DNA of 14,231 nucleotides from Leptolyngbyaceae cyanobacterium (GCA_965263355.1 CBDHHL010000006.1:1-14231), one strand, 5' to 3'; positions 3,044 through 14,231 are shown, counted from the first letter of the stretch. Notes: generated from the letters alone by a model not told the origin. A program made the numbers and translations.

Positions 3044-3138
3044 TGTGAGCAGCTGCAACACGACGATCATTACACACAACAAGGACATAACACACACGGA
3101 AGAAGACGCATACGAACACAACCCTTTCACGCTGGAAG

Positions 3139-3180
3139 CTATATACACATATACATATATACACATATTACATACACACG
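3139..3180. repeat. Degenerate (TA/CA)n low-complexity tract in U3
   Basis: ctatatacacatatacatatatacacatattacatacacacg. Confidence 0.6.
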
Positions 3181-3198
3181 TTACATGACCTTTTACAC

Positions 3199-3212
3199 AA
3201 TAAAAGTCAGTC
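3199..3212 (+). promoter_or_regulatory. Poly(A) signal AATAAA followed by initiator-like TCAGTC
   Basis: AATAAA at 3199-3204 and TCAGTC at 3207-3212. This matches the TCAGTY initiator known from invertebrate gypsy-like LTRs with short R regions. Confidence 0.6.
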
Positions 3213-3531
3213 TTGACAACACGCTAAAACAGTTCACACGTTTCATGCGTTATCGTATATATTCTTATTCCTAAGTGCATTTATTCCGTGATATCTATCC
3301 GTCAACATAGGTAACTATATTCATAAGTATAAGTATATTAGGATACCAGTAAAGCGATGGTATCCACATATACGTGATTAGGTCTCTTGACCTATAGCTA
3401 GGATACAAGGCCTGATAAAGCGATATCTCCCTTTATCAGACCCGACCTAAAGGCGCCGAGGTTACATAACGTCCTCACACGCCTTAAGTGATCATTACCC
3501 CTTCCTTAGGGAGATAGGGTAAGATCACAAA

Positions 3532-3544
3532 TGGTGGCAGCGGT
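3532..3544 (+). other. Primer binding site, complementary to the 3' end of tRNA-Leu
   Basis: TGGTGGCAGCGGT is the reverse complement of ACCGCTGCCA-CCA, the 3' end of metazoan tRNA-Leu(AAG-type) as I recall it. It lies 2 nt after the LTR-terminal CA. Confidence 0.85.
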
Positions 3545-4290: not shown

Positions 4291-4886
4291 TCCTTGCTGG
4301 TCGCTGTCAGAAAACGGGTGCGCCCTGAAAAGTGGAACATGCCTATATGCATAGCTACAGCCCTCTTATCTAACACGGCCTACCTATGCATCATAGTGCA
4401 CGGTCTCTCTATACATAATGAGTAGTCACTGGCATCTTAACATTGCCTCTAACAATTAACATTCAGTCTCTCTGACCCCTCCAAACTGTTCACGCATCTT
4501 GACCACCCACCATGCAACTTCCAACCCTCCCTCTTGCTCTAATTATAGTAAGCGACCGTTAAGACATATGCTTCAGCACATTATATTTAACCCTTCTTTC
4601 TTAGGTTCAGCGCACTCTTTACACGCGCGGGCTTTTCCCTAAGAAAGTTATAAAAACCCTTCTACCACTTTCCTAACTCTTAATTGTTTCCACACACTCA
4701 CACTTCACATACTAACACCAGAATCGCTTTTCTGATTCTGTCCCATAAGCCTTGGCTTATACTCAACACGATCCAGCTATAATTCCACGAAGTGTCCCCC
4801 ATACAAGGTCCAATCAGTAGCCGTCGCAAGCTGCCAGATCGCTACCAATATACGATCCGAGGTCTCTGACCTCCCAACTTTAACCT

Positions 4887-4977
4887 ACTGATCCAGCACA
4901 CTGCTCAAGAGTAGCGGTCTATCAGTATCCACTTCCCACTGATCCAGCACACTGCTCAAGAGTAGCGGTCTATCAGT
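4887..4977 (+). repeat. Perfect 40-bp direct repeat x2 (4887-4926, 4938-4977), each able to fold as a hairpin
   Basis: actgatccagcacactgctcaagagtagcggtctatcagt occurs twice with an 11-nt spacer and ends 6 nt before the gag ATG. Confidence 0.95.
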
Positions 4978-4983
4978 GCAAAG

Positions 4984-6228
4984 ATGAACGACCACGAGAG
5001 AGCCATTTACGCCGATAAGCTTGCCCTCAAGCAAGCTTATGCGCCGTTCCCTGTACTGTCCACCACGGATCCCACCGACTTCAAACGTTGGAGGGATTCC
5101 TTCACAGAGATCGCTATCCTCAACCGCACCAGGGAGCAGGACGCTGTCCGTGCTGCCAGGAACAACCTAAAAGGTGCGGCTTTGCAAAGAGCCAAGCAGA
5201 TTGTTCCAATCATCACAGACGATGACCCCTATACAGGCACTAAACTGTCGCAGTACATGTTTTGCCTGTCCAAGGCCTTCTTGGATGATGCTTCCCCTGC
5301 CAGGAACCTCAAACTGTTCCAAACGGCAGCACAAAAGCACGGCGAAGATTTCCACGACTTGGCTGTGAGGATCAAGACCTACTACATGGAGGCTTATCCC
5401 ACAGCCAACCACGATAACATAGAGGCAAACACCCTCGTGATTGACCGCTATGTGGATGCCATTAAGGACCTCAGCATTCAGCAGTCCTTACTCTCTGTGC
5501 AGAAGCCAACCATATCGGCCACGTCCCAGATTGCATACCGGTTGCGGCAATCCGTCTTGCAATCTTACATCAGCTGTGCACCAGACAAGATCCTCGAGCT
5601 CCAGCGGTTGAGACCGTTCCTCTTCATCTCTCCTGAGGAAATTTCAGGCTTGCCAGGCCACCAAACCTACCAACAGGACCAGTCAATCAACCAAATGGCT
5701 CCCCCACCAGCACCCCCACAGGCGCCAACTGCAGCAACCCCTGCAACACCAGCAAGTGAACCTATTCCACCGGCACAGCCTCAGCCATCAACATCTTTCA
5801 ATATAGATCCAACCCAGCTGCAGGCAGCCCTCGGCATTCAAGCTTTCATGAATGCTGCTACCAGATCCCCTCAGAAGTCAACCTCCAGAGGCCAGGGAAG
5901 ACCAAAGCCGCGCCAACAGTCGCGCACCGACCTCTCAACGGTCACCTGCTACAACTGTGGCACCAAGGGGCATCTGGCTAGAAATTGCACCAGGCCCAAA
6001 CCAAATTCCTCAGTCAGGCTGGTCCTCCCCAGACGGTCAAGCAACCAGTCAGGCAGAAATTCCACTGCTAGAAAGTCTTTCCATAACAAGCTCAGGCAGA
6101 GGATCAACGCCCTCTCAGCTGAGGACTTCGGCAGATTCGCTGAATCCATCAGCAATCTGGAATACACAAGTGATCCAGAAGCCTCGGACATCACTGACGA
6201 GGAGTCCGACGCAGAGCAGGGAAACTAG
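4984..6228 (+). CDS. gag: Gag (capsid plus single CCHC nucleocapsid knuckle), 414 aa
   Basis: MHR-like QKHGEDFHDLAVRIKTYYMEAYP, Pro-rich linker, CYNCGTKGHLARNC (5947-5988), basic then acidic C-terminus, located upstream of pol. Confidence 0.93.
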   Translation: MNDHERAIYADKLALKQAYAPFPVLSTTDPTDFKRWRDSFTEIAILNRTREQDAVRAARNNLKGAALQRAKQIVPIITDDDPYTGTKLSQYMFCLSKAFLDDASPARNLKLFQTAAQKHGEDFHDLAVRIKTYYMEAYPTANHDNIEANTLVIDRYVDAIKDLSIQQSLLSVQKPTISATSQIAYRLRQSVLQSYISCAPDKILELQRLRPFLFISPEEISGLPGHQTYQQDQSINQMAPPPAPPQAPTAATPATPASEPIPPAQPQPSTSFNIDPTQLQAALGIQAFMNAATRSPQKSTSRGQGRPKPRQQSRTDLSTVTCYNCGTKGHLARNCTRPKPNSSVRLVLPRRSSNQSGRNSTARKSFHNKLRQRINALSAEDFGRFAESISNLEYTSDPEASDITDEESDAEQGN

Positions 6229-6250
6229 ATCAGCCGGGTTCCACCCGGCT
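6219..6250 (+). promoter_or_regulatory. -1 programmed ribosomal frameshift signal
   Basis: Slippery G_GGA_AAC (6219-6225) in the gag frame directly before TAG, a 6-nt spacer, then an 8-bp stem AGCCGGGT-tcc-ACCCGGCT (6232-6250). The -1 frame is open from 6198 into pol. Confidence 0.9.
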
Positions 6251-9200
6251 ACCTTCACCCGCAATAACCCAGATCCAGGACACCAATACATACGAATCTG
6301 ACTCTGGTGCAGAAGATGACTCAGACAATGCTGATGAACAAGACACTACCAACAATGACACAGAGGAAGACCCAGAGGCTACGGCCTTCATCTCTCACTT
6401 GCAACAACTTCCACATGCCATTAGGCATAAGGAGACTGATACGGAGGCCCGTAAGGCTAAGACCTTCAGGAAGTTCTTACGCTGTTCAGTGGACGGCCAC
6501 ACTGTCAACGGCCTCGTGGACGGTGGCAACACCTGGCACTCATGCATCTCCGAAAACTTCATGAAAGTTTTAGGATGGAAGAAGACAGACCTCCTACCCA
6601 CCAAGTATTGCAATGTAAATACGGCCAAGAAGGGATCCTCTATCAAGTCCCTCGGACAGTTGCCAAGGCCCTTGACCCTAACTCCTTCCAACGGAGGCAC
6701 ACCTATACAGTTCCAGCCCATGGTCATGAGATCGTTGTCCACTTCACTCAATATCTCAGGACCTTTGCTCGAACTTTGCGGTATCGATCACCTCACCTCC
6801 AAGGGTGCCCTCAATTGGAGAGGCAAAAGGATCCCACTCCTCAACAGACCCAGTCTCAAGGACTCAGCAGCTATTTCCATCCTCGAGACAGCCACACTTC
6901 CACCAAAGTCCCTCAAGTTAGTCCTAGGAGTCTGCCCAGACACAATCAACTCAACCTTTGCATCTGGCACTGTAGTGGTTGAAGGAGACAAGTTATTAGC
7001 AGAGGAAACCAACCTAGCGCCTGCCAGGAATGCCCTCTGCACAATTACACCAGAGGGCTCCGTCTATGTGCCCCTTATCAACCCACATCACTACCCCATT
7101 ACCATCAAGAACGGTACCTTCTATGGGCGAGCTCACCTCACCAAAACCACGCTGCTCAGTAATGGCATCCAGTCCATATCCATGGTCTCTGACTCAGCTG
7201 ATGACTCAGGTTATGACAGCGAGGACGAGGATACCCCACAGGACATCAAGTATTTTGAGAACCTCCCGGAGGACCCAGAAACAAACCCCTCTGACCAATA
7301 CACCAATTGGTCTGATGACCAGAAGAAACAATGGTTCCTGGACACATACAAGTTAGACACCAGGCCCTGCTTCAAAACTCAACACCAGTTGAACCTGGCA
7401 CTAGACACCCTCACCAAACACTTTGACCTTTTCTCCAAGGACGGCTCCTATGGCTTCAGTGACCTCATCACCCATAGAATCATAACGGACGACGTCCAGC
7501 CTGTCAAGGACAAACTGCGACCCTGTAATCCACTGCTACAAGACTCACTCAAGGCACAACTAGAGAAATGGGACAAACATGGAGTCATCGAGCCCTCATA
7601 CTCCCCATGGGCGGCCAATGTTGTCCCAGTTAAGAAGAAAGACAACTCCATCCGCTGGTGTATTGACTACCGCAAACTCAATGCGGTTACTAAGAAGGAC
7701 AGCTTCCCCATGCCCAGCGTCTCGGAAACATTCAACGCTTTGGCAGGATCCTGTCTCTTCTCCAGTGTAGATATGGAAGGAGCATTCCACTCTGTGGCGA
7801 TTCACCCAGCTGACAGGGAGAAGACAGCCTTTATCACGCCATTTGGAACATTCCAGATGAAGAAACTGGGCTTTGGAGTTAGCAATGGCCCTGCAACATA
7901 CTGCAGGCTCATACAGATGGTTCTCAGAGGAATCCCCTCATCCATTGCTTTGGGATTCCTCGACGACGGAATTATTCATTCCAATGATGTCGAGACCCAT
8001 TGCCAAAACCTTGACAGAGTCTTCACAGCATATGCCAACGCTGGGCTCAAAATCAACCCAAAGAAGTGCTCATTATTCATGGAAGAAATCAACTACCTGG
8101 GCCATACAATCAACCAGCACGGCGTCAGACCACCAGCAGAGTACATCGACCAGATCAAAACATGGCCAGTCCCTGACTCTCCAAAGAAGATACGGCGCTT
8201 TCTGGGAATGGTCGGCTACTACAGAAACCATATCCCCGATTACGCTCTTCTCTCAGCCCCATGGACAGACGCCTTGAAGAAAGACAACGTCAAAAAGAAG
8301 ATCAAGCCCACACCTGAGATGATTGCCAACTTTGACAAACTCAAAGAGAAACTCACCACGGCACCCATACTGGGTTTCCCATACTTCCATGGACCAAAGG
8401 CGGGCACCTTCATCCTCGACACAGACTTTTCCTGCAAACAGATCAGCGGGATCCTCTCACAGATCCAGGATGGACAGGAAGTGGTCATAGCTTACGGCTC
8501 CAAAAAGCTAGACAGTGGTCAACAAAACTACCCATCCACAAAAGGGGAGCTGTTCGCTGGCAAACACTTCATGCAGAAATATGCATTCTACCTCAAGTGG
8601 TGCCAACAGTTCACCTGGAGGACCGATAACTCAGCCCTCCAATGGCTGAACAGTATGCAAGACCCGCCCAGTATCATCTACCGGTGGCGAGAAGTACTCA
8701 GGGACTTCAACTTCAAGGTGGTTCACAGGGCAGGAACCAAGCACACCAATGCTGACTGCTTATCGCGAGTGGAATTCGATCAACCACCACCCAAGAAACC
8801 TAAGCTCCAGACAGAAGACCAAAACACCCTGCCGGAGGACCACAAAACCCTGCCGGAGGACCACAACTCCCTGCCGGAGGACCACAATTCCCTGCCGGAG
8901 GACGCCACAGTCGCAGCCCTAGCCAATGATGCGGATTCACTGTCTTACAAACCACAGGAACCCACATGGCAAGACCTCCTCCAGCCCACAGCTCCACCTC
9001 CTCCAAACCAACTCATGAAGCGCATCACTGACCTCATTCCAGTCAGTATGGAGGACGAACAGCAGAAGTGCTCCACCCTCAGTATGGTTCGCAAATGGAT
9101 TAGAGGCATTGACAAACCAGATAGGCTCATGCAGCGATGCTTAACCCCAAACCAGAAGAAGTACTTAGGCACCCTCTCCTCCCTCAAACTCATACAGAGA

Positions 9201-10766
9201 GGAAAGGAACATGTATTGTGCTCCCTGTATCTCAAAGATGACGGTACTGTCCCACACTACCAAATCTGCCTCCCAGAACACCTCTGGGTACCGGTCATCC
9301 AAGCAGCACACACCCTCAATGGTCACATGTCGCATCAAAGTACCCTGGACCGTCTCAAAACCCTGGTGCATTTTCCAAACATGTCTAAAATGGTGAAGCA
9401 AGTTATTCACTCGTGCCAACCATGCATAACCAAACACAAGACAGCCAAGCCCCAGAAGCACACGCTCATTTCCAGTATGCCTCCCTATCCGTTCCACACC
9501 ATCCACGTGGACTTTGTTGGCCCCATTTACAAGTCATCGCAGGGGAACCAATACATATTCACGGTCAAAGACGCTTTCTCACGATGGGTGGAAGCATTTC
9601 CCATGAAGGAAGCCACAGCCAACAACGCAGCCTTCTGCCTGGAAACACAAGTATTCCCACGTTTCGGTCTTCCCCAAAGGATACACTCAGATTGTGGTTC
9701 ACAATTCACAAGTAACTTCTGGAAGCAGTTAGGAGAACAACTTAATATCAAGATCTCCTACACCACTCCATACCACCCCCAATCAAACGGGATGGTTGAA
9801 CGCTTCCACAGGGACCTTGGGAAGATGCTGGCCGCCACCAACAAAGGCGGCTCAGAAGACTGGGAACAAGGCCTTCCAGCCGCACTGATGGCTCTCAGAT
9901 CCGCAAAATCCAGAACCACGAATCTGAGCCCTTACTCAATATTGTTTGGCCGGGAAATGTCTCTGCCACTAGACCTGATTTTCGCACTCCCTGATAAGGA
10001 TACTGAACACATCACAGATGCTAAGGCTAGAGCCTTCACAATCAGGAAGAGGATCAACCGGGCCTATGAGTGTGCCATTATACACGCCCATAGAGCTGTA
10101 GAGAGGCAGAGACGTTCTTACCACCAGGACAAACAATATTTCACCGTTGGCCAAAAGGTGTGGCTTTACACTCCCAAGACATTCGACAGAGGCCCAACCA
10201 AGTTGAAAACTAGATGGTCCGGTCCCTGGACAGTCTGCGCACCACCGGGCAATGAGATTATGATCCGCATCTCACCCATGGCAGGTTGGCAGTTCAAACA
10301 TTCCATAGTGGTCGCCATTGACAGACTCAAGCTGTACACAGGAGAGAACCCCATAGAGCCTGACCCCTCTTCTGACCTACAAATGACCGGTGATGAATTT
10401 GCAGAGGAACTAGACCCTGCGGAGTTCGAGTGGAACAACGACCACTCTGTCGACCTTGAGACCTACAAACACCTCATGCCAGTGCTCACAGGGCCTTCAC
10501 CTTACCCAGATGACACATTAGACGACGGTGATCAAGCACGACCTGGCACACCCCCTCAACATAGTGATATTCAAACAAACATTAGTCAAACCAATACTAG
10601 TCCAACACAGACACAAGTGCAGTGCCCAAATAAAGCCCCTACACCAATTCAAACAGTGCTGACCAGTGTTACATATCCCATAGTTTCTGTACAACTCTTT
10701 CCACCAATCATCAGCAATATGAAATATAAGCCAAAGATCCCATCCGCTTCCAGCCGGAAGAATTAG
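6219..10766 (+). CDS. pol: Pol polyprotein: aspartic protease, reverse transcriptase, RNase H, integrase (made as Gag-Pol, ~1,930 aa)
   Basis: PR LVDGGN. RT SPWAANVV..KK, RWCIDYRKLN, FG...PAT, FLDD, YLGH. RH LDTDFS, KGEL, TDNSAL, NADCLSR. IN H-x4-H..CQPC, VDFVGP, SDCGSQF, NGMVER, GPW. The track start at 6399 is TTG; the frame opens at 6198. Confidence 0.97.
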   Translation, partial: GKLDQPGSTRLPSPAITQIQDTNTYESDSGAEDDSDNADEQDTTNNDTEEDPEATAFISHLQQLPHAIRHKETDTEARKAKTFRKFLRCSVDGHTVNGLVDGGNTWHSCISENFMKVLGWKKTDLLPTKYCNVNTAKKGSSIKSLGQLPRPLTLTPSNGGTPIQFQPMVMRSLSTSLNISGPLLELCGIDHLTSKGALNWRGKRIPLLNRPSLKDSAAISILETATLPPKSLKLVLGVCPDTINSTFASGTVVVEGDKLLAEETNLAPARNALCTITPEGSVYVPLINPHHYPITIKNGTFYGRAHLTKTTLLSNGIQSISMVSDSADDSGYDSEDEDTPQDIKYFENLPEDPETNPSDQYTNWSDDQKKQWFLDTYKLDTRPCFKTQHQLNLALDTLTKHFDLFSKDGSYGFSDLITHRIITDDVQPVKDKLRPCNPLLQDSLKAQLEKWDKHGVIEPSYSPWAANVVPVKKKDNSIRWCIDYRKLNAVTKKDSFPMPSVSETFNALAGSCLFSSVDMEGAFHSVAIHPADREKTAFITPFGTFQMKKLGFGVSNGPATYCRLIQMVLRGIPSSIALGFLDDGIIHSNDVETHCQNLDRVFTAYANAGLKINPKKCSLFMEEINYLGHTINQHGVRPPAEYIDQIKTWPVPDSPKKIRRFLGMVGYYRNHIPDYALLSAPWTDALKKDNVKKKIKPTPEMIANFDKLKEKLTTAPILGFPYFHGPKAGTFILDTDFSCKQISGILSQIQDGQEVVIAYGSKKLDSGQQNYPSTKGELFAGKHFMQKYAFYLKWCQQFTWRTDNSALQWLNSMQDPPSIIYRWREVLRDFNFKVVHRAGTKHTNADCLSRVEFDQPPPKKPKLQTEDQNTLPEDHKTLPEDHNSLPEDHNSLPEDATVAALANDADSLSYKPQEPTWQDLLQPTAPPPPNQLMKRITDLIPVSMEDEQQKCSTLSMVRKWIRGIDKPDRLMQRCLTPNQKKYLGTLSSLKLIQRGKEHVLCSLYLKDDGTVPHYQICLPEHLWVPVIQAAHTLNGHMSHQSTLDRLKTLVHFPNMSKMVKQVIHSCQPCITKHKTAKPQKHTLISSMPPYPFHTIHVDFVGPIYKSSQGNQYIFTVKDAFSRWVEAFPMKEATANNAAFCLETQVFPRFGLPQRIHSDCGSQFTSNFWKQLGEQLNIKISYTTPYHPQSNGMVERFHRDLGKMLAATNKGGSEDWEQGLPAALMALRSAKSRTTNLSPYSILFGREMSLPLDLIFALPDKDTEHITDAKARAFTIRKRINRAYECAIIHAHRAVERQRRSYHQDKQYFTVGQKVWLYTPKTFDRGPTKLKTRWSGPWTVCAPPGNEIMIRISPMAGWQFKHSIVVAIDRLKLYTGENPIEPDPSSDLQMTGDEFAEELDPAEFEWNNDHSVDLETYKHLMPVLTGPSPYPDDTLDDGDQARPGTPPQHSDIQTNISQTNTSPTQTQVQCPNKAPTPIQTVLTSVTYPIVSVQLFPPIISNMKYKPKIPSASSRKN
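8814..8903 (+). repeat. In-frame 21-bp tandem repeat (~4.3 units, LPEDH[K/N][T/S]) in the RNase H-integrase linker
   Basis: Core ccctgccggaggac at 8827, 8848, 8869 and 8890. Confidence 0.95.
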
Positions 10767-10902
10767 CTAACCCTCTTACCATTTATATTCCAGTGTTTGT
10801 TTCTGCATACCTCCACTGCCATCCACCACCACATACACAAGCCTTCGCTGATCGCTTTCCCCTGTTCCAATACACAGTACAGCAACCAACCAAATCACTA
10901 CC

Positions 10903-13900
10903 ATGGAGTTCAACCCCAATGCCACCGACTTCATCTCCGGAGTCTCCAACGCTGAGCTGGTCAACAACACCATGTTGACCCAATCCACCTCCGTAGCCCC
11001 TACCACCTTCGAGCTCACCGCCGTGAGCTCCCCCATGGAGATGACCAGGCACGGGGCTGTAGCCGCCATGACGGCTGCAGGCTCGATCCAGCCGGACCCA
11101 GCCTTCCCGTCTCTGCAGGAGACCGTGACCCGTCACGCCAGTGCGGCTTTCGCTGCAGCCCAGGGATCAATCCAGCCAGATCCCACATTCCCCAGCCTGG
11201 ATGATAAGCGGAACCAGCTTATCGCCAACGCGGACCCCCTCCTCCGCCCAGCCCACATGAGGACCCCAACCAAACCACCCCAGCAGCACGTGGTTAAAAC
11301 AGCCTCCCAACTGGTCAGGGAGCTGTACACCAGCCAGCCAAGGGACCCCATGTCAACCCCACCCCACAAAAAGAGGGCCTTCGAGTACCAGGAGTCCGAC
11401 TTCCCCTCACTCCATGACCTGACTACCAAAGGAGTGATGGAGAGGCCGGGGTACTCGACCATGAATCTCCAGAGAGCCAGAGCCAGGGACACCGAGTCCA
11501 ACTCAACCCAGTCCCCTCCCACAACGGTCCCTCACTCGCCGGCCCCTTACACACCCAGGGCAGTCAACTCAAACCTGACCCCCTTAGGTACACCCAACAA
11601 GAGACATTTGGGCAGCAGGGACTCCAACATCTCAATCGAGCCCCTCCACCAAACCAACCAGGCTATCCAGGCCTCCCAGCAAAGCCTGCTAAGGACTTCG
11701 GAGGACCTCGGAAGGACGGCCGACACAACCGTCTCCAAGCTCTCCAACCTTAGTGACCTCGTTGCCAAGCAAATCCCGGAGGCGCTTACGCAACTCACCA
11801 ACCTCAACCAGGAAATTGCCAGCAAGACTAGCCAGCTGCACGATCTGGAGCTCTCTCTGGCCACAACCAGATCGCCCAGGGCCTCTCACTCAAGATCAGG
11901 CTCCTTCTCTAGACCATCGAGGTCAAGGAACCCCTCCACGAGCTCCAAGACCCGCTCGCCCTCGGCCTCCCCAGCTACCCGCAGCCGCAACAAGTCCCTC
12001 CAGGAGGACTTAGACAGATTGAGATCTCGCATCGAGGAGAAGACAACCAAAATCGATGCTCTCAACAGCCAAGAACGATCTCTCCAAGACAGGCTATCCA
12101 AGTCAAAGAAGGCCAAACAAGAAGCAGACTCCGCTGTCAACGTGGCTCGCCGTACCAAAATTGACGTCGACACAGAGGTTAAGTCACTCAAGAAAGAGAA
12201 GGAAAACCTCCTTAAGACCATCTCAGAGCTTCGATGCAAGGAGGCAGCCTTGGAGTCCCGCAAGAAGGACGACGATGATGCCGCCGCTGCAGCCCAGGCG
12301 GTCAAGAAGGAAACAGAGAGTCTGAACAACAAGATCGCAGACCTCAAAGCGACCCTTGCCAGACTTGGCGCCGACAAGCGAAACTTGGAAACCACCTTGG
12401 CGGCGCATAACCTCGAGGTTACCACACAGAGGTCAAACCTCCATGACCTCAACCAGCAGCTATCCCAAGCTGCAGTCAACTTGCGGAGGACCAAAGAAGA
12501 TCATATAGCCGCCTCCAATGAACTCAATGCCATTAACGCTGCCATTACCGAGGCCAGAACGGCATATGAACAAGAACAAGAAGCCAGACAACAGCAGATG
12601 ACCACTACCGATAACCAGATTGCGGAACTACAACAACACCTCGTGGCCCTCCAGCAGCAATATGACACCCAGAAACAGCAGATGACCGCGCAGATCGACA
12701 GCCTCCGGGCTGACACTGACAAGCTTCAGCGCCAAAACAAAGAAGCAGCTGAGTCCCTCAGCGACACACTGTCCTCCAACTCGGCCTCCCTACAAAATTC
12801 GGCCATTAAACAATCCAACGAGCTCAACGCTGAGTTGGAGGCAGTCAGAAACAAGGTGGGTGCAGCCAAAATGCGCCTCACCCAAGTCAATAAGGAGCTC
12901 ACACAGGCCACCACCGACCTCCAGAAAGTGCAAGCCGACAAAAATTCAACAGAGGATGACCTAAGTATCACCAAGTCCAGACTGGACTTAGAGTGCAAGA
13001 AACTACACGACGTCCTCCATGCTCTCGACAGCACCAAGACCAGCCACGAAAATTCCAAGACGGCCCTCAACAAGGCCACCGCAGAATTAGACAAGGTCAC
13101 CAGAGCAGTGCAGGACAAAACTAAGGATCACCAGAACTTGACAGCCCAGGTCTCCAAAGCCAGATCCACCCTGCAAGAGCTCTCGTCAGACATCACTATG
13201 GCCCGCAAAAACCCCATAGTGCCAGCACCACTCTCCCCCATACCAATGGCACACCCCTCCATGATGATGGAGTTTGATGATGCCACTAACTCATGGGTTA
13301 GGCCGCAAGGACTGCCAGTCACACCAGGCAAGTCCATCCCCACACAGCCTCACTCAAGCAGCAACACGGTGACTGTCAACCCCACCATAACCATTCAGGC
13401 CCCAGCTGCAAGAGATGGCGAGGCCAATATTGCCCACCAGGCCGCAGCTTTCTTTGCACAAGCGGGCAAAGATCTAACCACATATGTGAATCATGAAATT
13501 ACGCAGTCCCAGGCCCTCCTAGCCAATCAGATCCAGACCATGAATGCCACTATAGCAGACATGAAGACAACGGCACTTAAGCACTTTGAGGTCCAGAAGG
13601 CGACTTATGCGCAACATTTCAACGACCTTGAGGCCATGCAGGTCCAATTCAATCAGCAGAAAGATACAGAAGCTGCAATCCAAATCGGCCAACTCAAAGA
13701 GACCTTGACAGAAGAATTTAAAGCGACAAGACAAGTTGACTTACTGGAACCACAAATTGCCAAGCAGCAAACCCAGATCACCCTCCTACAGAATGCACTC
13801 AAAGAAATAGACCGACTCCTCAAGGCCCAACAGAGCAAGAAACCAGGCAAAGGCAGTAAAAAGACTCAGCACATCGCAGAGAAACAGCTCCAGATAGCCT

Positions 13901-14231
13901 CACAACTGGAGCTCCAGGACATTGACGCCAATGCCACTGAGGATGACCTAGCCCGAAACCAGACCAAGCTGTACAGGACCATCAATAACAAGATCGAAGA
14001 CCAACATGCCAGGGTCACGAGAGTAATGGAGGATCTGCGCAACGACATCCACGATCCTAACACTCTATTCTCCATCGACCCGAAGACAGTGGCTCACAAA
14101 AGGCCTAGGGATATCTCTACTGACACCACAATAGGCAAGCCTCCTGCCAAGATTACACCAACAGTGGACACTTCAAGAGTACCACAAGAGCATCTTGCCT
14201 CCGTGCAAGAAACATTATCCAAGTTACACCC
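10903..14231 (+). CDS. ORF3: large accessory protein (>=1,109 aa) with disordered N-terminus, RS-rich patch and long coiled coils; runs off the window end
   Basis: Hand translation from ACC-ATG-G (strong Kozak; upstream in-frame TGA at 10849) finds no stop to 14231. It begins MEFNPNATDFISG. Heptad-rich Q/E/K/L/A stretches lie at about 11990-13200 and 13480-14050. It is presumably absent from the ORF track because it has no stop codon. Confidence 0.9.
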   Translation, partial: MEFNPNATDFISGVSNAELVNNTMLTQSTSVAPTTFELTAVSSPMEMTRHGAVAAMTAAGSIQPDPAFPSLQETVTRHASAAFAAAQGSIQPDPTFPSLDDKRNQLIANADPLLRPAHMRTPTKPPQQHVVKTASQLVRELYTSQPRDPMSTPPHKKRAFEYQESDFPSLHDLTTKGVMERPGYSTMNLQRARARDTESNSTQSPPTTVPHSPAPYTPRAVNSNLTPLGTPNKRHLGSRDSNISIEPLHQTNQAIQASQQSLLRTSEDLGRTADTTVSKLSNLSDLVAKQIPEALTQLTNLNQEIASKTSQLHDLELSLATTRSPRASHSRSGSFSRPSRSRNPSTSSKTRSPSASPATRSRNKSLQEDLDRLRSRIEEKTTKIDALNSQERSLQDRLSKSKKAKQEADSAVNVARRTKIDVDTEVKSLKKEKENLLKTISELRCKEAALESRKKDDDDAAAAAQAVKKETESLNNKIADLKATLARLGADKRNLETTLAAHNLEVTTQRSNLHDLNQQLSQAAVNLRRTKEDHIAASNELNAINAAITEARTAYEQEQEARQQQMTTTDNQIAELQQHLVALQQQYDTQKQQMTAQIDSLRADTDKLQRQNKEAAESLSDTLSSNSASLQNSAIKQSNELNAELEAVRNKVGAAKMRLTQVNKELTQATTDLQKVQADKNSTEDDLSITKSRLDLECKKLHDVLHALDSTKTSHENSKTALNKATAELDKVTRAVQDKTKDHQNLTAQVSKARSTLQELSSDITMARKNPIVPAPLSPIPMAHPSMMMEFDDATNSWVRPQGLPVTPGKSIPTQPHSSSNTVTVNPTITIQAPAARDGEANIAHQAAAFFAQAGKDLTTYVNHEITQSQALLANQIQTMNATIADMKTTALKHFEVQKATYAQHFNDLEAMQVQFNQQKDTEAAIQIGQLKETLTEEFKATRQVDLLEPQIAKQQTQITLLQNALKEIDRLLKAQQSKKPGKGSKKTQHIAEKQLQIASQLELQDIDANATEDDLARNQTKLYRTINNKIEDQHARVTRVMEDLRNDIHDPNTLFSIDPKTVAHKRPRDISTDTTIGKPPAKITPTVDTSRVPQEHLASVQETLSKLH

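Follow-up and report, generated by a model that had tools for sequence, protein, structure and literature searches.

The window analysed here, a stretch of 14,231 nt, is one circularly permuted unit of a Ty3/gypsy LTR retroelement, and its joint (14228>1) was seen in contigs of 3 of 3 runs, which represent two samples at most and one study. In element order, and with its LTR, genes and motifs on the plus strand, the unit consists of an LTR, a primer-binding site, a 1.4-kb leader, gag, pol, ORF3 and env. The LTR (TGTGA...TCACA, 3044–3529) carries AATAAA at 3199 and is followed on its 3' side by a primer-binding site starting with TGG at 3532, which we take to be of the tRNA-Leu type. The gag gene (4984–6228) encodes a CCHC zinc knuckle (PF00098, E 8e-7), and pol (6198–10766), entered in the -1 frame with a slippery GGGAAAC at 6219, encodes a protease-like domain, reverse transcriptase (RT), RNase H and integrase. 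The Ty3/gypsy assignment follows from the CCHC gag, the order of RT, RNase H and integrase, and the presence of an LTR with a primer-binding site. Two repeats were also noted, a 43-nt direct repeat just 5' of gag (4884–4977, copies 51 nt apart), one copy of which is skipped by some contigs, and, within the pol linker, a tandem repeat of 21 nt (8807–8911); a search of the window against Rfam gave 0 matches. The host of the element is a eukaryote, and we infer an invertebrate, since the named Pol matches, all of them distant, came from a bivalve, a lancelet and a pseudoscorpion.

The env reading frame (192–2966), which lies 3' of ORF3 in element order, encodes a chuvirus-type fusion glycoprotein (PF24664, Monjiviricetes_fusion, E 1.4e-52). 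A glycoprotein of this type is a regular env after pol in this Ty3/gypsy clade, being present at 32 of 79 loci (L001–L079), many of which are short or come from few assemblies. A 2023 survey reports, in the accessible portion of its text, no clear capture of chuvirus-type glycoprotein genes by Gypsy elements (PMC10084718), and the corresponding portion of a 2025 paper names only Anakin (PMC12440569); our literature search on Gypsy elements with a chuvirus-type env returned nothing beyond these two, and such an env as a regular Ty3/gypsy gene may count as a separate finding. Within the first 374 codons of the env frame there is no ATG. In the 5' leader, a hydrophobic mini-exon of 12 codons with an ATG (4512–4547, donor 4548) is in phase with an acceptor ending at 263 and would supply the start of the env signal peptide. 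The cytoplasmic tail contains PPSY, TAPP and VRYPSLTSL (2223–2297) and continues for ~220 more residues (2290–2960) that are rich in Ala, Arg and Ser with RSAS-type repeats, making it much longer than the usual glycoprotein tail; the 23%-identical env of locus L005 (near 9198) has VRYPSLTSL and PSAP. Late-domain-like motifs on env rather than on gag are unusual.

ORF3 is an intact frame, the first 1109 of its 1135 codons lying at 10903–14228 and the last codons and stop at 1–82, reached across the circular joint; the full length of 1135 aa is found in three database copies. A 3' splice acceptor for ORF3 is predicted at 10767–10793 (CTAAC branch point, pyrimidine tract, CAG), and this was the only site in the window to pass a branch-point/pyrimidine/AG scan. 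The only ATG after the acceptor ending at 10793 is that at 10903, where the protein begins MEFNPNATDFISG in the strong context ACC ATG G. This start is supported by diverged contigs, whose match begins at 10897–10904. Since the likely env donor at 4548 would place its upstream ATG out of frame with ORF3, another donor (e.g. 3519) or leaky scanning would be needed for ORF3. Splicing of the ORF3 N-terminus onto env was also considered and dropped, as the first 400 nt of ORF3 offer no good donor and the 5' UTR mini-exon suits env better.

Judged by sequence and predicted fold, ORF3 is an orphan protein of 1135 aa. In Pfam and fold searches it resembled no known protein in either sequence or fold; the fold search, run with a low-confidence model, yielded coiled-coil noise only (TM-score ≤0.13 by query length), and the ESM Atlas gave no usable match for residues 1–200 and 775–1115. 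Neither a transmembrane segment nor an RNA-binding domain was found in ORF3, and a La motif with an RRM is absent from its Pfam results; a basic patch, PPHKKRAF, and a linker rich in RS are present. In the predicted model, which was built from 6 sequences and reached a pTM of 0.22, residues 1–250 are disordered and the rest forms long helices (249–321, 357–450, 476–676, 687–769 and 843–1063). Short helices are predicted within the disordered front at residues 51–58, 71–86 and 99–109.

Three FPSL motifs lie in this front. The first is contained in the 12-mer GSIQPDPAFPSL (11080–11115, F at residue 68), a candidate RACK1-interacting motif, and the second in GSIQPDPTFPSL (11164–11199, F at residue 96), which belongs to the second unit of a 28-aa repeat. 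The third, AFEYQESDFPSL (11377–11412, F at residue 167), is acidic, with DFPSL at 11398–11412, and stands in a context unrelated to the two repeats. The coordinates given in the first-pass annotation all hold. An acid stands directly before F in the third motif and in neither of the two repeats. All three FPSL motifs fall in predicted coil with pLDDT under 50, and the ORF3 motifs as a whole, including the PAM2-like start discussed below, are low-confidence coil (pLDDT 26–48).

We examined whether these motifs exceed what composition would give. In shuffles of ORF3 residues 1–172, FPxL occurred three times at a frequency of 3e-5 and twice at 1.3e-3, and any 4-mer occurred three times at 9.5e-4 and twice at 0.23; because two of the three FPSL motifs stem from one duplication, the figures for two occurrences are the fair ones. 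Among the 172,058 residues of 119 Pol relatives, the background counts were 22 FPxL, 3 FPSL and 4 [LF]NxxAxxF. Together, the shuffles and the Pol background rule out a low-complexity artefact. The two repeated 12-mers share 11 of 12 residues and only 25 of 36 nt, and their codons divide into 7 synonymous, 1 non-synonymous and 4 identical pairs, as had been proposed from the sequence apart from the single replacement codon; a silent variant at 11169, within the second 12-mer, was seen in runs X1 and X3. In neutral point-mutation simulations carried to 11 nt differences, one amino-acid change or fewer was obtained in 0 of 93,208, the 12-mer being the best block of the 28-aa repeat unit and chosen after the fact. 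The remaining 16 codons of the unit include 11 non-synonymous differences, which indicates that selection is concentrated on the 12-mer. These results bear out the earlier proposal of protein-level selection: the repeated 12-mer has been kept by such selection since the duplication, which by itself does not name the partner.

Relatives of ORF3 are few. A HMMER search against 1.84 billion representatives returned 4 proteins at E up to 0.001, of which P0132 (68%) and P0134 are pieces lacking the N-terminus. P0133 (86% identity, 604 aa) keeps all three FPSL motifs and reads TTDL for ATDF (A7T, F10L), so that two PAM2 anchors are gone; truncated as it is, it may be a decayed copy. In the P0002 cluster, every motif was kept in the 7 of 10 members counted, the other 3 being fragments without the N-terminus. 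All 8 database copies with the ORF3 N-terminus (86–100%) thus retain the three FPSL motifs, although 7 of these 8 are 92–100% identical in the N-terminus and are not independent. Word-based searches for further N-terminal relatives found P0002 and P0133 only, and viral contigs scanned with pol contained no relative. A diverged copy of 10904–11495 was present in run X2, with 105 differences and 6 gaps.

Compared to ORF3, P0133 differs at 9 of 150 positions (6%) in residues 1–150 and at 72 of 300 (24%) in residues 151–450 (Fisher p 9e-7). Two of the 9 N-terminal changes fall on the three PAM2 anchors (p 0.013) and none falls in the 12-mers, the latter not being significant alone (p 0.21). The disordered front is therefore the best-kept part of ORF3, but it is conserved as a whole and not in its motifs alone. 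The sole distant full-length homologue, P0135 (25% identity, E 5e-34, 1156 aa), aligns to ORF3 residues 233–1132, a shared region that includes a C-terminal KRP patch, and contains no FPxL and no PAM2; its DAPTL may or may not be a motif remnant. Conservation in homologues, on which the first-pass annotation had staked its reading, was consequently found for FPSL in all close copies and failed for both motifs in P0135 and for A7 and F10 in P0133. As P0135 lacks both motifs, the core function of the family does not need them, and the FPSL and PAM2-like motifs look younger than the helical core. None of the 79 related gypsy loci, many of them short, had a match to ORF3 or P0135, and the 24 pol–env intervals examined leave a gap of 633–2180 nt, too small for ORF3; ORF3 is thus a lineage-restricted addition. 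In the Pol relatives P0015, P0039 and P0045, the integrase is followed by a disordered or coiled-coil tail several hundred residues long, where ORF3 stands in the present element, and the Pol tail of P0063 has a PAM2-like stretch.

The first 12 residues of ORF3 (10903–10938) resemble a PAM2 motif, with F3, A7 and F10 in register. Phe at PAM2 position 3 is found in some cellular PAM2s. Compared to the consensus XXLXXXAXXFXP given in the consulted text of PMC6486636, ORF3 has F instead of Leu at position 3 and Ser instead of Pro at position 12; Ala7 and Phe10 are present in the window and in 7 of 8 database copies, both being lost in P0133, and the setting is unstructured (pLDDT about 30 over residues 1–20). 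A single [LF]NxxAxxF arose in shuffles at 0.004 for residues 1–172 and at 0.012 for the whole ORF. When residues 1–20 were searched against 177,635 PDB sequences with E up to 10, the sole match was the PAM2 peptide of Paip2 (1jgn_B, E 0.53), extending to G13-V14 of Paip2, and a search with residues 1–186 gave one chance-level match (E 0.49). The first-pass annotation had noted a PAM2-like motif here and suggested a Pfam scan; the register and the Paip2 match stand, L3 and P12 are wanting, and the Pfam PAM2 profile gave no match to ORF3 at E up to 10. Because two consensus positions fail, residues 1–12 are not filed as a PAM2 member. On the side of the PAM2 reader, Pfam matches to MLLE domains without RRM matches were seen in proteins of 208–480 aa (L080, L081, L085, L093, L095 and L097), mostly from giant-virus bins, and these viral-collection proteins are possible viral PAM2 decoys.

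FPxL was recently described as a RACK1-interacting motif that cryo-EM reveals in SERBP1 and ZAK and that LARP4 shares, with ZAK F417 and L420 entering a RACK1 pocket between blades 2 and 3, SERBP1 contacting RACK1 by P396, V398, F404 and L407, and SERBP1 competing with ZAK for the pocket (PMC12823453, in the sections available). This supports the ribosome link that had been proposed for SERBP1; for ZNF598/Hel2 the same link found no confirmation in the literature consulted. The available part of a preprint (10.64898/2026.08.26.747346) adds RNF10 as a ligand, places an FPxL-type motif in 4.5–6% of ribosome-associated proteins, and describes a second RACK1 site for a helix of the form S-aromatic-A-x-hydrophobic, which is present in ZAK, LARP4 and RNF10 and absent in SERBP1. 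In ORF3, no strict RACK1-interacting helix was found, the near misses being AFAAA (11146–11160), where a short helix is predicted between the first two motifs, and GYSTM. ORF3 has three copies of the FPx(L/F) core in disordered sequence (residues 68, 96 and 167), and its 12-mer runs from F-8 to F+3, exactly the contact span of SERBP1. At the upstream contacts, Ile occupies F-6 (the position of SERBP1 V398) in 2 of 3 motifs, and F-8 (the position of P396) is Gly, Gly and Ala, with Pro in 0 of 3. Searches of the PDB with the FPSL peptides gave no match, to SERBP1 or to anything else. A comparison of one vertebrate and one algal RACK1 showed Q76, F77, L89, F113, Q119, N133 and K139 of the pocket to be identical and T93 not; given this near-invariance, the host probably has the FPxL pocket. 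Eukaryotic RACK1 genes (fungal-like, algal-like and vertebrate-like) were also encountered in the prokaryote genome records L100, L101, L102 and L104, where they represent contamination.

The motif cluster at the N-terminus of this orphan accessory protein is real and has been under selection, and RACK1 is its candidate partner; its poor conservation in the distant homologue weighs on the other side. We favour, tentatively and with a probability of roughly 0.4, the reading that ORF3 would be an oligomeric adaptor of the LARP4/SERBP1 kind, occupying RACK1 and perhaps PABP too so as to protect element RNA. The pairing of a PAM2-type motif with FPxL in LARP4 recurs in ORF3 and counts for this reading; that FPxL is common and has a second reader, HD-PTP, a rival partner missed by the first-pass annotation, counts against it.

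The foremost alternative, itself unlikely, is that the 12-mer repeat was kept for the structure or self-assembly of ORF3 (helix, turn motif, helix) or for some other partner, the PAM2 likeness being coincidental. The conservation of residues 1–150 of P0133 throughout, and not at the motifs alone, is consistent with this, as are the modelled short helices on both sides of the 12-mers, the lack of the motifs in P0135 and of the PAM2 anchors in P0133, and the occurrence of the loose PAM2 pattern 4 times in 119 Pol relatives. However, no folded domain is predicted there (pLDDT under 50), the third FPSL lies 70 residues away in an unrelated context that the repeat does not explain, and the PAM2-like match covers exactly residues 1–12 and extends to G13-V14 of Paip2.

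A more improbable alternative is that the FPSL motifs serve as late-domain-like ligands for ESCRT adaptors of the Bro1 family (HD-PTP, ALIX), with ORF3 a matrix-like or scaffold protein assisting the budding of enveloped particles. The FPXL of UBAP1 is described as binding HD-PTP and resembling viral YPXnL late domains (PMC5145805, in the text consulted), the env gene lies directly 3' of ORF3, and VRYPSLTSL is common to the env tails of this element and of L005, so that an xPSL motif in this clade could plausibly serve ESCRT. YPSL, PPSY and TAPP are, however, already present in the env tail, and ORF3 has no YPxL. In the same source, the contacts of UBAP1 with HD-PTP further include hydrophobic residues at F-5 and F-2 (I263 and L266), whereas the three ORF3 motifs share the core and have Q/P, Q/P and Y/S at these positions. 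Moreover, 24 of 24 env-bearing pol–env intervals examined are without ORF3, and a PAM2-like start would play no role in budding.

Least probable is that ORF3 is mainly a Rev/CERV-like export or assembly factor for unspliced genomic RNA acting through its helical body, with late and secondary N-terminal motifs: this has a precedent in Cer1, a C. elegans gypsy element whose spliced accessory protein with coiled-coil parts is described as exporting genomic RNA (PMC10309623, in part), and would suit the region shared with P0135 (residues 233–1132, including the KRP patch), the PPHKKRAF patch and the RS-rich linker, but ORF3 has no sequence or fold likeness to known proteins, CERV-like factors included, ORF3 is missing from relatives whose env likewise depends on spliced RNA, and the selection on FPSL is left unexplained. 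An export role can coexist, as a second role, with occupation of RACK1.

If ORF3 does occupy RACK1, we envisage a lineage-restricted accessory protein of an env-bearing element that would work as a stripped-down LARP4/SERBP1. ORF3 would be made from spliced RNA and stay soluble in the cytoplasm, where its helices would assemble into a coiled-coil oligomer and so display several motifs together. On the 40S subunit, FPSL would then enter the RACK1 pocket between blades 2 and 3 in the register of SERBP1, and the MLLE domain of PABP might be a weaker or optional target of residues 1–12. With the two hubs filled, factors acting in quality control and decay (ZAK, RNF10 and deadenylase adaptors) could be displaced and the long, frameshifting element RNA protected; alternatively, ribosomes and PABP could be gathered where the proteins of the element are made. 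This benefit to element RNA is the weakest step, as ORF3 has no RNA-binding domain that we could find. With its -1 frameshift at GGGAAAC (6219), the element may stand to gain from dampened collision sensing.

An extended form of this proposal, which we consider doubtful, would make ORF3 the first ligand of the RACK1 FPxL pocket to be encoded by a retroelement. As an oligomer, it would act as a decoy whose repeated motifs cover RACK1 of neighbouring or collided ribosomes while PAM2 holds PABP, so that ribosomes pausing at the gag–pol frameshift would evade ribosome quality control as well as ZAK and RNF10, and the RNA would evade deadenylation. If true, such a decoy would be a LARP4/SERBP1 mimic evolved from scratch and recently added to an older coiled-coil protein. 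The FPxL pocket was defined in 2025–2026 as a hub contested between SERBP1 and stress or quality-control factors, the ligands in the accessible descriptions being host proteins, and our search of the open-access literature found no retroelement or viral protein with RACK1 FPxL motifs and no retroelement PAM2 protein. What is new here is a retroelement protein with three FPxL motifs, spliced accessory ORFs, some of them coiled-coil, being already known in LTR elements. If the element has built three FPxL motifs and a PAM2-like start, the RACK1 hub would be a target in host–transposon conflict, similar mimics would be predicted in RNA viruses, and a testable role could be given to one of the orphan accessory ORFs that are numerous in LTR elements.

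Compared to known systems, ORF3 shares features with several. Compared to the PAM2 of Paip2, it has the same register, N4-P5-N6-A7, F10, G13-V14 and a disordered setting, and differs by F3, S12 and only two residues before position 3; compared to PAM2 ligands generally, it lacks a Pfam match and its anchors are lost in one relative. With UBAP1 FPXL and viral YPXnL, as described in the consulted part of PMC5145805, it shares an aromatic-P-x-L core, here in an enveloped retroelement, whereas its two repeats are without the upstream hydrophobic contacts and the Y-type motif of the element is in env. Coiled-coil ORF3s are also described as accessory ORFs in LTR elements of bdelloids (PMC5408684, in part), and these, like Cer1 CERV (PMC10309623), are extra, spliced and family-restricted coiled-coil genes of gypsy elements; ORF3 has no homology to them and sits between pol and an intact env, and RACK1 or PABP motifs are not described for them in the available text of either paper. 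With the RACK1-interacting motifs of SERBP1 and ZAK, as far as their published description was accessible, ORF3 shares the FPxL core, a hydrophobic F-6 in 2 of 3 motifs and the block from F-8 to F+3; its motifs differ in being internal and repeated, and it has no Pro at F-8, no mRNA-channel segment and no kinase. LARP4 carries PAM2w, FPPLP (in CR1) and SYAEVC (in CR2) on one chain, with FPPLP predicted on the same RACK1 site as FPxL (10.1101/2024.11.01.621267, in the sections available). In LARP4/LARP4B, as in ORF3, an N-terminal PAM2-type motif and FPxL occur in disordered sequence on one chain, and by analogy a bridge from PABP to 40S-bound RACK1 would be possible in principle for both. Lacking a La module, ORF3 is not a LARP4: it has neither La motif nor RRM, nor the strict CR2/RIH that is described as the main RACK1 anchor of LARP4, and instead combines three FPxL motifs, not one, with a 700-residue helical body, all encoded by a retroelement.
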